From an uncultured Candidatus Saccharibacteria bacterium (GTDB lineage Bacteria; Patescibacteriota; Minisyncoccia; Phycocordibacterales; JACOZG01): a stretch of 64,000 bases of DNA. The notes below the pieces were generated by a model. The model saw only the letters and a program-made list of their open reading frames with translations. It was not told where the DNA came from and searched no databases. The number at the start of each line of letters is the position of its first letter. The first letter of the stretch is position 1. A program made the translations under genes and the position numbers. The stretch is taken from positions 138,455-202,454 of the forward strand of contig OZ246403.1 of the NCBI GenBank assembly GCA_965230925.1, read 5' to 3'. Positions 58,520 through 64,000 of this stretch are shown piece by piece.

Positions 58520-59398
58520 ATGCTGTGGCGGTCTTGTCAAACAGTAACTCGCCTGGTACGCTGGCGGGACTTTATTCTGATGACCAAAATTCTCGATGGA
58601 AAAATGTTGAGTCAAAGCATTGCGGCCAAGTTGCGCCAAGCAATTAAAAAGCGTGGCAAGATCCCCACCCTCGCAATTATTCAAGTGGGCGACGTTCGTG
58701 CCTCCACCGCGTTTATCAATCGCAAGAAAGCGTTCGGCGAGCAGATTGGCGCGCGCGTACTTCATCGCCAATTCCCTGCGCGCGCTACCGAGCGGCAAGT
58801 TCTTGATGTCATTAAGAATTACAATGAAGACCGAACAGTTCACGGCATTATTGTGCAATTGCCTTTGCCATCTCATCTCGATAAAACCCGGATTATCGAG
58901 GCTATCGACCCGCAGAAAGACGTGGACGGTCTCACAAGCGCGAATATGAAGCTCCTCCTCGAAGGCAAGCCGGGCATCGTGCCGGCCACCACGCGCGGCA
59001 TTCTTACCCTTCTTGATCATTATCACCTCCCGCTCGCGGGTAAGCGCGTGGTGATCATTGGTCGTTCAACCTTAGTAGGCAAGCCTACCGCGATCGCTTT
59101 CCTTAATCACCATGCCACGGTCACCCTTTGCCACCGCCAAACGCGCAATCTAGCTCAAATTACCAAAACCGCTGATATTCTCATCGTTGCCGCAGGCCAC
59201 GCCAAGCTCATTACTCCGCGCCATGTTTCGCCGAAGCAAATTATTATTGATGTGGGAATTAATCCTCAAACCAAAGGCGTAATTGGTGACGTGGATCCGC
59301 GGGTAAGAACTCTGGTTCGCGCCATTAGCCCCGTCCCCAGCGGCGTTGGTCCCATGACCATCGCTTCTCTCTTCCAAAACTTAGTCGAGAACTATTGA
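58520..59398 (+). CDS. folD: bifunctional methylenetetrahydrofolate dehydrogenase/cyclohydrolase
   Basis: FolD catalytic and NAD(P)-binding motifs (DVDGL, GRSTLVGKP); true start probably MTKILDG about 58580. Confidence 0.85.
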   Translation: MLWRSCQTVTRLVRWRDFILMTKILDGKMLSQSIAAKLRQAIKKRGKIPTLAIIQVGDVRASTAFINRKKAFGEQIGARVLHRQFPARATERQVLDVIKNYNEDRTVHGIIVQLPLPSHLDKTRIIEAIDPQKDVDGLTSANMKLLLEGKPGIVPATTRGILTLLDHYHLPLAGKRVVIIGRSTLVGKPTAIAFLNHHATVTLCHRQTRNLAQITKTADILIVAAGHAKLITPRHVSPKQIIIDVGINPQTKGVIGDVDPRVRTLVRAISPVPSGVGPMTIASLFQNLVENY

Positions 59399-61185
59399 TG
59401 CAAACCAATTTGCAGTTCGTAGAGATGGCGATAGACGCCGTCTTTTTTCTTCACCAATTCATCATGCGTTCCCGATTCCACAATTTCCCCTTCTTGGAAG
59501 ACGAGAATCCGATCAGCGCGACGCACCGTGCTCAAGCGGTGAGCGATAATGAAAGTTGTGCGACCAGCCATCAGTTCCGCGAGCGATTCGGTAATTAATT
59601 TTTCTGATTCAGCATCAAGAGCCGACGTCGGCTCATCGAGAATCAAGATTTTTGGATCGCGTAAAATGGCCCTCGCAATTGCCACGCGTTGTTTCTGACC
59701 TACCGAGAGTTTAATCCCCCGCTCACCCACCAAAGTCCCATAACCTTGGGGCAATTTCTCCACAAATTCGGTTAAGTGCGCCTTCTCGGCCGCCGCTTTA
59801 ATTTGCTCATCGGTAACGGCGAAGGATCCGTAATGAATATTGGTTTTTAGGCTGTCATTGAAGAGTGCCACTTCTTGCGGCACCACCGCAATCTGCTGAC
59901 GAAGTTCCGTAAGACTCACCTGCGCCGTGTTCTTGCCATCAATCAAAACTTCCCCCGCAGTAGGGAAATAGTAGCCGGAGATGAGTGAGATAAATGTACT
60001 CTTGCCTACACCCGATTTGCCGACCAAGGCAATCACCTCGCCTGGCTTCACTTCCAAATTAATGTTCTTCAACACCGGCGGCTGATCTGCACCGTAACCG
60101 AAAGAAGCATTCTTGAACGCAATAGCCCCAGAAATTTTCCCCAGCGCCACCGCATTTTCCGGCTCGTATTTCTCTTCCGGCTCTTGGAAAATCTCTTCAG
60201 CATGAGCCGCAGCAATCACTCCGTTTTGCATGACTTGCCAGCTATAACCCAAGGAAACAAACGGACCAAAGAACATGGCCGCATAGCTATTAAGAGCCAC
60301 CAATTCACCAATAGAAATTGACCCAGACGCCACAAACTTAACGGAAAAAATAAAAATAGTGAGCTGGGTTAAGAAAACGATAAACCGCTGAAAGAATCCA
60401 ACATTACTCCAAATATGATCGAGCTTTGACCAGATTGATCTCGTTCTTCGAAGAAGCGCATCATCAACTTTTTTCATTTCGTATTCCTCCGTGGCCGCCT
60501 GTTTAACACTCTCAATTTGGTGAACAGCCGCGGCTGCCTCGTCCCACCCTTCATTCCACGATCGATGAGACTCCGAATCAACCCTGGCAACGGAACGCAA
60601 AATCTTGAAGAGCAAGAGAAGATACAAAATCACACCAACCACCAAAACGGCCGACAAAAAAGCGTTGATGCTAGCAGCAAGCACTAAACCCACCACCACA
60701 CTGAGAAGTTGTGGAACAATATTAACTAGATTTCTGAGAATTGCCGCCACTCGCCAACCGGCCTGGCTAATTTTCTGCAAAGCACCGTTCACATGAACAT
60801 TCTTGTGGTAAGACAAAGGCAGACGGAAAAGATGAGAAAAGGCGTTCACCTGAATGCCGATGTGAGATTCAAGATCAATTTTACGCTTGCGGCGATCCAT
60901 GAACCAGTCATTCAAGGTTGTGATGATTTGAACTATGGCCCAAAAACCCAAAATGACTTGCCACAAGGGAATAGATCGCCACACATTTAGTTCTCCTTGA
61001 GAAATCTGGATCAAAATATCAAAAAATCTCCCGGTAATGTATGGCACGGAACCGTTGACGATAGCTGAAACGACGCCCAACACAGACAAAATCACCACTT
61101 GTGATTTAAATGGTTGAAGGTGGCGCCATACGGCGCGGATTCCGGCCCGGATCTCGCCGGGTTTTATTTCATAATCTTGAGTCAT
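59392..61185 (-). CDS. ABC exporter, fused permease/ATPase (MsbA/type I exporter-like)
   Basis: 6-TM domain plus NBD with Walker A GKSGVGKST, signature LSVGQKQR, Walker B ILILDE. Confidence 0.85.
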   Translation of the reverse strand: MTQDYEIKPGEIRAGIRAVWRHLQPFKSQVVILSVLGVVSAIVNGSVPYITGRFFDILIQISQGELNVWRSIPLWQVILGFWAIVQIITTLNDWFMDRRKRKIDLESHIGIQVNAFSHLFRLPLSYHKNVHVNGALQKISQAGWRVAAILRNLVNIVPQLLSVVVGLVLAASINAFLSAVLVVGVILYLLLLFKILRSVARVDSESHRSWNEGWDEAAAAVHQIESVKQAATEEYEMKKVDDALLRRTRSIWSKLDHIWSNVGFFQRFIVFLTQLTIFIFSVKFVASGSISIGELVALNSYAAMFFGPFVSLGYSWQVMQNGVIAAAHAEEIFQEPEEKYEPENAVALGKISGAIAFKNASFGYGADQPPVLKNINLEVKPGEVIALVGKSGVGKSTFISLISGYYFPTAGEVLIDGKNTAQVSLTELRQQIAVVPQEVALFNDSLKTNIHYGSFAVTDEQIKAAAEKAHLTEFVEKLPQGYGTLVGERGIKLSVGQKQRVAIARAILRDPKILILDEPTSALDAESEKLITESLAELMAGRTTFIIAHRLSTVRRADRILVFQEGEIVESGTHDELVKKKDGVYRHLYELQIGLHQ

Positions 61186-61188
61186 AAT

Positions 61189-62181
61189 TTAATCTAGACC
61201 AACCAACTTCCGAACTTCTTGCATCTTCGCTCCCGCCACGGCTCGTGCTTTCTCGGCACCAGCGGCCAAAATTTCTTTCACTCTCTCGGGATTCTTCACA
61301 ATCTCCTTTCGCTTCTCGCGGAGTGGTGCCAAGTAAGCATTCATATTGTTGAACAAGATTTCTTTCGACTCCGCGTAACCAATTCCGCCTTCTTTGTACC
61401 GCCGCGTCAGCTCAGGCAAATCTTTCTCACTGAAAAGTTTATGGAAGGCAAAGACATTGCACGTTTCCGGATCCTTCACTTCCTCCACACCTTTCGAGTC
61501 CGTTTTGATACTCATGACCAATTTCTTCATTTCTTCAGGCTCAGAGAAAAGCGGGATGGTATTACCATAACTCTTACTCATCTTCTCACCGTCGAGACCC
61601 ATCACCGTTTTTACATTCTCCTCAATTAGGGGGGCAGGGAGTTTGAACGCTTCGCCATACACGCGATTAAATTTCTCCGCAATATCGCGCGTAATCTCGA
61701 GGTGTTGCTTCTGATCTTGACCCACCGGCACCACGTCGGGACTGTAGAGCAAGATATCGGTCGCCATCAGCACCGGGTAATCGAAGAGACCCATATTCAC
61801 TTCCTTATTCCGTGCCTCAGCGTCCTTGAAGGCGTGAGCCCGAGAAAGATAAGGCACCGTCACGAGACAATTGAAAATCCAAGCAAGCTCAGCGTGCGCC
61901 GGCACGGCCGATTGACGGAAGAGAACAACACGTTCAGGGTCGAGGCCAATGGTGAGGTAATCAATCGCGAGATCAAGCGTTGACTGCTGAAGCACCGCGG
62001 CATCACTCACCGTAGTGAGCGCATGGAGATCAGCAAGCATGATGAAAGAACGGTACTCGTTTTGAAGATCGACAAATTGCTTCATCGCGCCAAAATAATT
62101 ACCGATATGCGGCCGACCGGTCGGCTTCACGCCCGACAGTAAAATTTTCTGTTCTTTATTCATTTTTAACTCCCAGATCAT
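61189..62181 (-). CDS. trpS: tryptophanyl-tRNA synthetase
   Basis: HIGN (HIGH) and KMSKS motifs; TrpRS length and layout. Confidence 0.9.
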   Translation of the reverse strand: MIWELKMNKEQKILLSGVKPTGRPHIGNYFGAMKQFVDLQNEYRSFIMLADLHALTTVSDAAVLQQSTLDLAIDYLTIGLDPERVVLFRQSAVPAHAELAWIFNCLVTVPYLSRAHAFKDAEARNKEVNMGLFDYPVLMATDILLYSPDVVPVGQDQKQHLEITRDIAEKFNRVYGEAFKLPAPLIEENVKTVMGLDGEKMSKSYGNTIPLFSEPEEMKKLVMSIKTDSKGVEEVKDPETCNVFAFHKLFSEKDLPELTRRYKEGGIGYAESKEILFNNMNAYLAPLREKRKEIVKNPERVKEILAAGAEKARAVAGAKMQEVRKLVGLD

Positions 62182-62294
62182 ATCAAATTACTAAAGACTT
62201 GACAAACAATGTTTAAAAGGTTAATTTACCCATCAGGTTGTACACCCCAGGCTGTCTGGGAGCTCTAAATTCCGGTTTTCAACAAGGGAGTGTT

Positions 62295-62459
62295 GTGGTG
62301 AAGATTTCAGGGAAGCTTATCTTAACGGTAATAGCAACAATCGCCATCGGCCTGCTGACCGCGCAAGGGGTTCGAGAGATTATTTTGGACCAGCTTTACG
62401 AGCACCACTGCTTCGATGATGAAGGGTTCGAAGTGGTCGTGGTGCTAGCGACTAATTAG
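62295..62459 (+). CDS. small single-TM protein (about 54 aa)
   Basis: GTG start with SD AAGGGAG; hydrophobic helix LILTVIATIAIGLL; strong terminator follows. Confidence 0.3.
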   Translation: MVKISGKLILTVIATIAIGLLTAQGVREIILDQLYEHHCFDDEGFEVVVVLATN

Positions 62460-62493
62460 CGAGCGTCAACCCTCGGGAGGGAATATCCCCGGA

Positions 62494-62532
62494 CCCGGCG
62501 TCACATGAAGTGACGCCGGGCGTTTTGTGTTT
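62494..62532 (+). terminator. rho-independent terminator
   Basis: cccggcgtcac-atgaa-gtgacgccggg + CGTTTTGTGTTT. Confidence 0.7.
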
Positions 62533-62639
62533 GCTGATTATAAACAAATAAGCTAGACTAAATCGGCTAGTGGGTCTTTGAAAGACATTCGCCTGTAGGC
62601 AATGCAAGAGATCCGCGCTTATCAATTGGGAGGAACTTA

Positions 62640-63293
62640 ATGTTTCCTAAACTGTTTAGTGTTCTCCTGGTCTCGATCACCAGCTTAGCAAGTCTAAGCG
62701 GGAAGGAAGCGGTCGAGAAAAACGAAAGGACCACACCTCAAAAACTTGGAGGCATCGAACTACCCTTCGTCGGCGAAGGTTCCCTCGGTATGGTTGAGAA
62801 CGAGGATGGATCACGCGAGTGGATCATCGGAGTAAAAGTCAGCGAAGCAGAAAAGGCGGAGCTGGCTTGGTTCTTTGATCCTGGCGAAGGAACTCTCGAC
62901 GGCAACGGGCTCCCCAAGGAAGAGTTCGTTTTCGCGGGAGGGTTAGATATCGCCGTTGATGAAGATGGGACACTAACCATCGGCATACTCAACGAGGAAA
63001 CGAACGCCTTCCACGAACTCCGAACCAGTTTCTGGTCAGACACTGGTGACGGAGGATACCGAGTGACCGACAACGAGCAAGGTCAGGTGTTAGTAACAAC
63101 ACCAAGTGGCCCAATCGAAAACAATTCGGAGCTCTTCGCCGACAGTGGCGAGAGTTGTGCGGGTGGCAGCTGTTCATGCGAAGGAAAATGCAAGGCGTGT
63201 TGCCCGTCTGGCACAACGGCATATTGCAATTGTTCCGGGTCCGGCACATGCAGGTGCCCCGCGAATAAGGAGATCAACACCCCCTCACAGTAG
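62640..63293 (+). CDS. secreted protein with C-terminal cysteine-rich tail (12 Cys in about 35 aa)
   Basis: SD GGGAGG 7 nt before the ATG; signal peptide MFPKLFSVLLVSITSLASLSG; tail SCAGGSCSCEGKCKACCPSGTTAYCNCSGSGTCRCP. Confidence 0.5.
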   Translation: MFPKLFSVLLVSITSLASLSGKEAVEKNERTTPQKLGGIELPFVGEGSLGMVENEDGSREWIIGVKVSEAEKAELAWFFDPGEGTLDGNGLPKEEFVFAGGLDIAVDEDGTLTIGILNEETNAFHELRTSFWSDTGDGGYRVTDNEQGQVLVTTPSGPIENNSELFADSGESCAGGSCSCEGKCKACCPSGTTAYCNCSGSGTCRCPANKEINTPSQ

Positions 63294-63321
63294 TTAAGGA
63301 GGTGATCGAGTATCTAGGTTG

Positions 63322-63358
63322 GCCCCCGCGCTTTTTGCGCCGGGGGTCATCTTTTTTA
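63322..63358. terminator. GC-rich hairpin + T-run between convergent genes
   Basis: gcccccgcgc...gcgccggggg then TCATCTTTTTT. Confidence 0.5.
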
Positions 63359-64000
63359 TCCCAACTCAACAATAAATGTGCTCCCCTTGCCCTGCCCTTC
63401 TGATTCGGCCCAGATTTTGCCGCCATGCGCCTCCACAATTTGCTTGGCCACATAGAGCCCGAGGCCAGTGCCAATAATATTTGTCTTACCTGCATCGTGA
63501 GCACGAGAGAATTTTTCAAAAAGTTTTGGCATCGTCTCTGGCGCAATGCCAATACCCGTATCTGTGACCAATAATCTATTTTTCCCTCCTAATTTTTCTA
63601 ATCTCACCTTAATAGAGCCCGCGTGGGTATACTTCATCGCATTATCAATTAAATTAGAGACCACCTGACTAATCTTGCCCGAATCAGCCTTAACCTTAAA
63701 TTCCTCTGGCGCCGCTTCAAAACTAATCTTCAGCTTATTGCGCTCCACCGTTGGTTTAACGTCCCTCACAATCGCCTCCGTGAGCGCCTTAAAGTCGATC
63801 TCTGCCATCTCATACTTCATCGTCCCCAGCTCAATGCGTGTAATGTTAAGAAAGTCCTCAATCACCACCACCAGCTTCTGACTCGACTGGAAGATCCTCC
63901 CCACCGCCTCCGCCGCCTTCTCCGAGAGCGGACCAAATGACCCCTCAAGAAGCATTGACGCATACCCCTTCACCGAAGTCAGTGGACTCCTTAGCTGGTG
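63356..64000 (-). CDS. sensor histidine kinase, C-terminal HisKA + HATPase_c portion (5' part beyond window end)
   Basis: H-box region, N, G1 (DTGIGI) and G2 (GTGLGL) boxes. Confidence 0.8.
   Translation of the reverse strand, partial: HQLRSPLTSVKGYASMLLEGSFGPLSEKAAEAVGRIFQSSQKLVVVIEDFLNITRIELGTMKYEMAEIDFKALTEAIVRDVKPTVERNKLKISFEAAPEEFKVKADSGKISQVVSNLIDNAMKYTHAGSIKVRLEKLGGKNRLLVTDTGIGIAPETMPKLFEKFSRAHDAGKTNIIGTGLGLYVAKQIVEAHGGKIWAESEGQGKGSTFIVELG

Follow-up and report, generated by a model that had tools for sequence, protein, structure and literature searches.

A rare family of predicted secreted, acidic proteins with a ten-cysteine module, one of them encoded by an insert in a Candidatus Saccharibacteria chromosome

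We analysed a 64,000-nucleotide stretch of contig OZ246403.1 (positions 138,455 to 202,454 of the forward strand; assembly GCA_965230925.1) from an uncultured Candidatus Saccharibacteria bacterium, called the window below, and focused on one gene near its end, at 62640-63293. Its product, P0001, is a member of a real, rare and previously undescribed family of stand-alone, predicted secreted proteins, whose hallmark is a short C-terminal module with ten cysteines. With moderate confidence we read P0001 as a secreted acidic protein with a disulfide-stapled module, encoded by an accessory gene that was acquired between the genes of a histidine kinase (HK) and tryptophanyl-tRNA synthetase (TrpRS).

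The gene and its product

The open reading frame (ORF) had been singled out in an original prediction, which a model made from the sequence with no database searches. Its Shine–Dalgarno (SD) sequence, signal peptide and acidic, glycine-rich body are all borne out: the mature part of P0001 contains 34 aspartates and glutamates versus 14 lysines and arginines, and 27 glycines. The features of the gene are listed here (pLDDT, the predicted local distance difference test score, is from AlphaFold2 (AF2) models).

62628-62633 (+): SD sequence GGGAGG of the P0001 gene, as read in the sequence, 6 nt 5' of ATG 62640
62640-63293 (+): cysteine-module gene for P0001, a predicted secreted acidic protein of 217 a.a.; stop codon included
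62640-62702 (+): probable Sec-type signal peptide, about residues 1-21, from inspection of the sequence and hydropathy; lipobox cysteine absent
62742-63029 (+): predicted all-beta N-domain, about residues 35-130, with six strands (pLDDT 78-92) and, in alignment A1, the family motifs LGGxxLPYxGxG and W61
63030-63155 (+): linker, residues 131-172 (pLDDT 46-61; 15% mean pairwise identity in the family)
63156-63257 (+): ten-cysteine module, residues 173-206, C-x4-C-x-C-x3-C-x2-CC-x7-C-x-C-x5-C-x-C
63258-63293 (+): hydrophilic C-terminal tail ANKEINTPSQ plus stop codon; anchor or sorting signal absent

The N-terminus of P0001, MFPK-LFSVLLVSITSLASL-SGK, shows the n, h and c regions typical of a Sec signal peptide, and by eye and hydropathy there are small residues at -3/-1 of the putative cleavage site (SLA/S or SLS/G). 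No lipobox ([LVI][ASTVI][GAS]C) is present in P0001 and the first cysteine comes only at residue 173, so that P0001 does not qualify as a bacterial lipoprotein. All cysteines lie within residues 173-206 (at 173, 178, 180, 184, 187, 188, 196, 198, 204 and 206; C-AGGS-C-S-C-EGK-C-KA-CC-PSGTTAY-C-N-C-SGSGT-C-R-C), followed by 11 residues to the end of the protein. The original prediction had counted 12 cysteines and had the protein end with them (at CRCP); there are ten in 34 residues, and the hydrophilic tail comes after. Cysteine frequency is 0.56% in long ORFs of the window, which gives a probability of ~4e-15 for at least ten cysteines in 34 a.a. A search for a paralog of P0001 in the window found none. 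The P0001 sequence is present, 100% identical, on five contigs, among them a 716-kb NCBI contig.

A small family with a conserved cysteine module

A word-indexed search of 5.8 billion proteins with P0001 as query recovered P0001 alone, and the same search with profile A1 gave only five matches. Phmmer against 1.84 billion cluster representatives, all of them scanned, gave 24 matches, about 19 of which are proteins of 170-251 a.a. that align end to end with P0001. With two more members from the profile search and one from IMG/VR, the family known here has about 22 members. Four long phmmer matches (P0017, P0018, P0022 and P0024) were rejected as weak matches summed over tandem repeats (dsRBD, InlB B-repeat, Ig-like and MBG). 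We found no relative of P0001 in GTDB species genomes, no family match among GenBank phages and PLSDB plasmids, and none in IMG/VR when it was searched with single proteins; the search with alignment A3 gave one match in IMG/VR and one in JGI metagenomes. The family has no match in Pfam, NCBIfam, PHROGs or PADLOC, and no description of it was found in the literature. The homolog search for the tail proposed with the original prediction, with metallothionein and bacteriocin profiles in mind, has thus recovered a family and no profile match.

Members share one architecture: a hydrophobic, signal-like segment at the N-terminus, an all-beta N-domain of acidic character, a variable linker and the cysteine module. 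By hydropathy, the N-terminal h-region is found in 22 of 22 members and another segment of transmembrane (TM) grade in none; the net charge is between -11 and -26 in all members except one (21 of 22). The N-domain is marked by the motifs LGGxxLPYxGxG, W61 and GWxF, and the module by the consensus CPGGSCxCxGKCxACCPxGxxPxCxCxGxGxCxC. Mean pairwise identity is 54.5% for the module, 24.7% for the N-domain and 14.7% for the linker, and with the cysteine columns removed the module still has 36.8%. The cysteine spacing is the same in most members, G175, G176, A186 and G191 vary little or not at all, and there are conserved aromatic positions as well. The cysteine-rich tail that caught attention in the original prediction is therefore genuine and selected, the best-conserved segment of a small family. 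Poor conservation or low complexity in homologs, which would have refuted the original prediction, was not observed (the pattern is kept in ~20 relatives), and neither was a match to a housekeeping lipoprotein family.

In about half of the relatives the protein continues for another 10-25 residues after the module and has a short hydrophobic end motif (e.g. LELVEYGV, LEVVYEVAP, IEMEYEVTA or MLDYTVTY; an LExxxY-like strand). Many relatives have one additional cysteine in the N-domain (xCTxxGW). P0001 has neither.

Disulfides or metal ligands

The module is, in our judgement fairly probably, a stack of two beta-hairpins held by five disulfides. AF2 was run with a 20-sequence alignment, and the module was also modelled alone. 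In the full model the N-domain is made of beta-strands and the cysteine module has pLDDT 88-93; in the model of the module alone the core has pLDDT 92, with strands at 176-180, 184-188, 195-197 and 203-205, i.e. two beta-hairpins. Strand alternation places C178, C180, C184 and C188 on one face of hairpin 1, and C196, C198, C204 and C206 on one face of hairpin 2. C187 would be the sole cysteine of hairpin 1 that points away from hairpin 2, which fits its loss together with C173 in one relative. The cysteine count of the module is always even: it is mostly ten, eight in P0019 (C173 and C187 both lost), 12 in P0016 (two gained) and ten in P0020 (two relocated). The presence of signal peptides in all members and the invariant small residues (G175, G176, A186 and G191) also speak for disulfides. 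Bacteria of the Candidate Phyla Radiation (CPR) are reported to be enriched in an MdbA-like oxidoreductase together with VKOR (bioRxiv 10.1101/335083), so oxidative folding outside the cell is plausible.

The original prediction had offered metal chelation next to a disulfide knot; between the two, the evidence leans to disulfides. If the module were instead an extracytoplasmic metallothionein-like domain, its ten cysteines would stay reduced in an anoxic habitat and bind Cu(I), Zn(II) or Cd(II) as thiolates, and P0001 would be a secreted metal buffer or scavenger. We think this unlikely, although several features speak for it. 29% of the residues of the module are cysteines, arranged in CxC, CC and CCPxG motifs with serine, glycine, lysine, alanine and threonine as filler; many relatives have a histidine beside the CC pair (GFHPHC, GYHPRC); and the body of the protein is strongly acidic. 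Hhalign against the human MT2 alpha-domain gives a probability of 45% over 24 columns (this comparison, like those with granulin A and hevein below, is pairwise and is a lead rather than proof of membership). However, none of 20 members matches a Pfam metallothionein profile even at E<=1, nor is there any match in NCBIfam. The known bacterial metallothioneins (SmtA/BmtA, MymT) are cytoplasmic, unlike the members of this family, all of which have signal peptides. A thiolate cluster would set no parity rule for cysteines that shift only in pairs. The conserved aromatic positions, and regular hairpins that are predicted without metal (pLDDT > 88), are not expected of it either.

Comparisons of profiles and folds gave only weak leads. 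PDB sequence profile searches with A1 and A2 found nothing significant; the best match is potempin A (PotA; 8b2m/8b2n/8b2q), weak at E 0.6 over 55 columns and not among the top 50 Foldseek matches in PDB. Foldseek at E<=0.001 found nothing for the full model (PDB, BFVD) or for the tail model (PDB), and the full model has meander beta-barrels as its weak top matches, the tail model a granulin subdomain and an EGF-like domain. Hhalign against granulin A gives a probability of 25% over nine columns; hevein-like chitin binding was rejected (probability 0.06%). The divergent InlB B-repeat (PF18998) has no Pfam match among 20 members, and hhalign of A1 against the PF18998 repeat from P0018 is weak (probability 25% over 36 columns).

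Genomic neighbours and possible partners

We compared ten independent contexts of family genes within 5 kb on either side (the window, L082, L084, L087, L090, L091, L092, L094, L095 and L097). The sole gene that any of them share is the family gene itself, which leaves no maturase, no transporter and no small TM protein as a partner; a check for modification enzymes and transporters close by, suggested along with the original prediction, found none conserved beside the family. In the window the neighbours are housekeeping genes (for FtsW, MraY, ScpA/B, an AspRS-type protein, cytidylate kinase, FolD, an MsbA-like ABC exporter, TrpRS and the HK).

These contexts bear on maturation of the cysteines by dedicated enzymes, another option of the original prediction. 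P0001 would then be the precursor of a ribosomally synthesized and post-translationally modified peptide (RiPP), its tail being the core peptide of a radical S-adenosylmethionine (SAM) or Lan-type enzyme encoded elsewhere. Cysteine density, together with a C-x3-C-x2-C string in the tail, is all that suggests it. At 217 a.a., with a Sec signal peptide and a predicted folded N-domain, P0001 is unlike the short leader–core precursors of SCIFF, ranthipeptides and lanthipeptides. A CxxxCxxC motif is missing from all other ORFs of at least 150 a.a. in the 64-kb window, which for practical purposes rules out RiPP maturation, and we regard it as scarcely credible.

A small ORF lies upstream of the P0001 gene on the same strand, and intrinsic-terminator-like hairpins follow both.

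62284-62290 (+): SD sequence AAGGGAG of the small ORF, as read in the sequence, 7 nt 5' of GTG 62298
62298-62459 (+): orphan ORF of 53 a.a.; single hydrophobic segment (LILTVIATIAIGLLTA), C-terminal half acidic; among the called genes of an independent Logan contig too
62494-62533 (+): intrinsic-terminator-like hairpin (62494-62520; 11 bp, 9 of them GC) with a T-rich tail, 3' of the small ORF
63321-63357 (+): intrinsic-terminator-like hairpin (63321-63348) with T6 (63352-63357)

The two strong hairpins that had been predicted to bound the P0001 gene are there: 62494-62520 has -26.5 kcal/mol (z -3.58) and 63321-63348 has -28.2 kcal/mol (z -3.82) on the plus strand, with 0 of 200 shuffles equally stable in each case; the latter is weaker on the reverse strand (z -1.95). 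An Rfam hit to the rdlD antitoxin RNA at 63305-63352 (+), with 28.4 bits versus a gathering score of 50, is this terminator hairpin and not a real rdlD. No consensus promoter was found for the P0001 gene. The upstream mini TM protein of the original prediction keeps its own SD sequence, terminator and single hydrophobic segment; its length is 53 a.a. from GTG 62298, not 54, and 62238 is merely the first in-frame TTG. Its codon-usage score is coding-like: it is 0.25, the mean for coding sequence is 0.29, and only 4% of chunks in non-coding frames exceed it. Among 5.8 billion proteins it has no homolog but itself, and therefore the "two-gene unit" is not a conserved system; nor does a small-TM counterpart occur beside nine other family members, which argues against the two genes as a functional pair. 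Relatives have a PEP-CTERM gene in this place (see below), but the idea that the 53-a.a. ORF is a remnant of it received no support.

Disulfide-rich secreted proteins are often toxins, and the pair could be read as a toxin/immunity or bacteriocin/immunity cassette, with P0001 as the secreted cysteine-knot toxin and the 53-a.a. membrane protein as the immunity factor. The small ORF is indeed directly upstream in the same insert, with an SD sequence of its own and coding-like codon usage. Its lack of homologs and of counterparts in the family, and the strong terminator that separates the two genes, make such a cassette very unlikely. There is also no match to a bacteriocin, toxin or defence profile, and its large size and strong acidity set mature P0001 apart from the usual cationic membrane-active peptides.

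Relatives on phage-like contigs

Several relatives are in phage-like contexts (L082, L084-L088 and L094, with PHROG hits, DUF5131, a NinI-like phosphatase, AAA_24, PDDEXK and RusA), and one is carried by a 216-kb IMG/VR contig (L090). Others are in ordinary chromosomal contexts: L091, L092 (with GcvH/T) and L097 (a 439-kb contig). The family gene differs in position between L084 and L087 although these contigs are collinear: in one of them it precedes the 121/132/290-a.a. block, in the other it follows the DUF5131 gene. The phage-like contigs with P0025 also carry a giant ORF (L084:1-7098(+) and L085:1-3621(+)) of >3,367 a.a. that runs off the locus and has no Pfam hit on record.

The gene could thus be a phage-derived conversion or exclusion factor, i.e. 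a moron that acts at the cell surface (e.g. one that makes a receptor unavailable to superinfecting phages) and that stayed behind in, or was captured by, the bacterial genome. The relatives on phage-like contigs and their variable position agree with this, and so does the window gene, which is self-terminated and opposite to both neighbours; the genes of P0002, P0003 and P0015 are likewise solitary and opposite to their neighbours. But there are no other phage genes, no integrase and no att-like repeats around the insert in the window, P0001 has no PHROG match, and no deposited phage or plasmid has a family member. No terminators were recognisable at the flanks of the phage-borne copies (L084, L087, L090), and the family is found in ordinary chromosomes too. 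We consider a phage origin of this kind improbable.

An insert at the HK–TrpRS junction

The P0001 gene and the small ORF are both within a lineage-specific insert of this Paceibacteria lineage, whose genome is of a groundwater Patescibacteria type.

62206-63355 (no strand): lineage-specific insert of ~1.15 kb, with the TrpRS promoter/start on one side and the HK stop codon on the other, at a junction that is tight in relatives

Four relatives (L003, L008, L009 and L011) have the HK gene directly upstream of the TrpRS gene on the same strand, with 50-65 nt from its end to TrpRS, while in the window the two genes are separated by ~1.15 kb with two ORFs on the opposite strand. The closest TrpRS genes (72% identity) are in metagenome-assembled genomes of Paceibacteria/Vogelbacteria-type Patescibacteria, and there is no family member in 80 TrpRS-anchored loci. 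Synteny therefore supports the "acquired cassette" of the original prediction; composition and flanks do not. The GC content of the insert is 0.49-0.54 versus 0.49 for the window and its codon usage is host-like, so that there is no island signal, and no direct or inverted repeats flank it. The HK gene does lie convergently downstream as predicted, its stop codon (63356-63358) overlapping the T-tract of the second terminator. The HK is the ancestral neighbour of TrpRS and not a partner in the cassette. Immediately upstream of the HK gene, just past the end of the window, is a 340-a.a. ORF with no NCBIfam match (L001:12256-13278(-)).

Three other relatives (L002, L004 and L012) have different inserts at the HK–TrpRS junction. 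In L002 and L004 it holds a gene for a secreted protein of ~240 a.a. with a PEP-CTERM domain (L002:5133-5864(-) and L004:5114-5818(-); TIGR02595 with 29.1 and 26.2 bits, cut-off 16) and a cysteine-containing, lipoprotein-like ORF of ~100 a.a. (L002:4578-4910(-) and L004:4629-4931(-)); GC content is 0.51-0.53 in these inserts versus 0.44-0.45 for their loci. PEP-CTERM and exosortase are usually tied to Gram-negative envelopes, and their presence in Patescibacteria is therefore odd. The third occupant, in L012, is a same-strand ORF of 226 a.a. with a SAM-methyltransferase-like VLDLGSGTGRNS motif (L012:3024-3704(+)). Homology of the window insert to those of L002 and L004 was tested and rejected. 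With PEP-CTERM proteins in two relatives and P0001 here, genes of secreted or surface proteins seem to have landed repeatedly at the HK–TrpRS junction in Paceibacteria.

On the other side of the insert, the TrpRS gene probably starts at ATG 62163 (MNKEQKILLSG; as in relatives and in the Logan gene call) and not at the longer ORF start 62181 (window 62163-62205(-)). The longer start lies within a promoter-like site with an extended -10 element (TTGTCA-17-TATGAT, 62205-62177). The gene of the MsbA/HlyB-like ABC exporter (59392-61185(-)), which is under every NCBIfam curated cut-off, comes 3 nt downstream of TrpRS. The 12 closest relatives have neither this exporter nor FolD within 6 kb of TrpRS, which shows a break in synteny on that side of TrpRS as well. 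A link between P0001 and the exporter is unsupported: the exporter is below the curated cut-offs and does not occur by other members, and P0001 has a Sec signal.

Discussion

We propose that P0001 is exported by Sec, cut by signal peptidase I and released as a soluble, strongly acidic, extracytoplasmic protein. It would consist of an all-beta N-domain of ~100 residues and the C-terminal module of 34 residues, whose ten invariant cysteines most likely pair into five disulfides and staple the two predicted beta-hairpins into a compact stack free of a hydrophobic core. The connectivity that we envisage is C173-C187 on one face and four cross-links from hairpin 1 (C178, C180, C184, C188) to hairpin 2 (C196, C198, C204, C206). 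The family is apparently scattered over unrelated bacterial chromosomes and phage-like contigs, with no dedicated partner genes, and the P0001 gene seems to have been dropped, as part of the insert, into an otherwise tight junction. Such an insert, with its own SD sequence and terminator, points to an accessory factor, extracellular or at the surface, that was probably acquired horizontally. As to what it does, a stable binding module (adhesion or inhibitor-like) that acts outside the cell would be the most plausible guess, speculative as it is.

Several points weigh against this interpretation. The parity argument comes from three variant sequences, and the composition of the module with its CxC/CC/CCPxG motifs is like that of a metallothionein alpha-domain (the hhalign lead of 45% over 24 columns). 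A look at motifs, the one kind of search aimed at it, showed no thiol oxidoreductase in the 64-kb window. The signal peptide was called by eye, and the functional hints for the N-domain are only potempin A (E 0.6) and the InlB B-repeat (hhalign 25%). Lastly, the gain of the gene is deduced from relatives alone, because the insert has no anomaly of composition or codon usage and no flanking repeats; loss in several relatives is formally possible.

For the present, the value of P0001 is that of a well-delimited "dark" family of about 22 proteins rather than of a mechanistic discovery. If the five-disulfide hairpin stack is true, it would be a new, very small, sequence-defined cystine fold from bacteria and phages (small cystine scaffolds are useful in protein engineering), and would open a rare way into what Patescibacteria do outside the cell, given that hardly any of their host-interaction proteins has been characterised. 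The HK–TrpRS landing site could steer the search for genes of host interaction in Paceibacteria genomes. A bolder scenario, which we rate as doubtful, is that a new disulfide-laddered (or metal-clustered) mini-fold is spread by mobile, partly phage-borne secreted effectors that act on cell surfaces, and that episymbiotic Patescibacteria captured a copy at the HK–TrpRS hot spot for attachment to, or manipulation of, their hosts.

Comparison with known systems

Metallothioneins (the vertebrate MT alpha-domain and SmtA/BmtA) resemble the module in having ~30% cysteine, CxC and CC motifs and small polar filler. They differ in that the cysteine module of P0001 is secreted and part of a 217-a.a. protein, with even cysteine parity, predicted hairpins and aromatic residues, and lacks a match to a metallothionein profile.

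The single accessory gene with its own SD sequence and terminator, in an orientation independent of its neighbours, and the relatives at variable positions on phage-like contigs recall phage morons. Variable position between conserved phage modules is seen for the relatives only (L084 versus L087); the copy in the window, in contrast, is chromosomal, has no surrounding prophage and lacks a consensus promoter.

The Cys-rich extracellular proteins of Peribacteria, another CPR group, have a mean length of ~1,655 a.a., cysteines throughout and weak similarity to Myxococcus Cys-rich repeats, and a role in attachment has been proposed for them (PMC4736985). Like them, P0001 comes from a CPR genome, has a signal peptide, is Cys-rich and presumably extracellular, and belongs to strain-variable content, but it has 217 a.a. 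with all cysteines in one 34-residue module, and no similarity was detected.

Granulin-type beta-hairpin stacks offer another parallel. They too are small modules almost without a hydrophobic core, in which hairpins (predicted, in the case of P0001) are stacked with cysteine-lined faces, and CCPxG[FY] is shared; the granulin N-terminal subdomain 1g26 is among the weak Foldseek top matches (22 columns, 41% identity, E 8.3). The granulin consensus is CX5-6CX5CCX8CCX6CCX5CCX4CX5-6C, with 12 cysteines and four CC pairs, whereas the module of P0001 has ten cysteines and one CC pair in the spacing C4C1C3C2CC7C1C5C1C. The P0001 family has no Pfam granulin match and no statistically significant similarity to granulins, and its modules are bacterial or phage-borne and fused to an all-beta N-domain.

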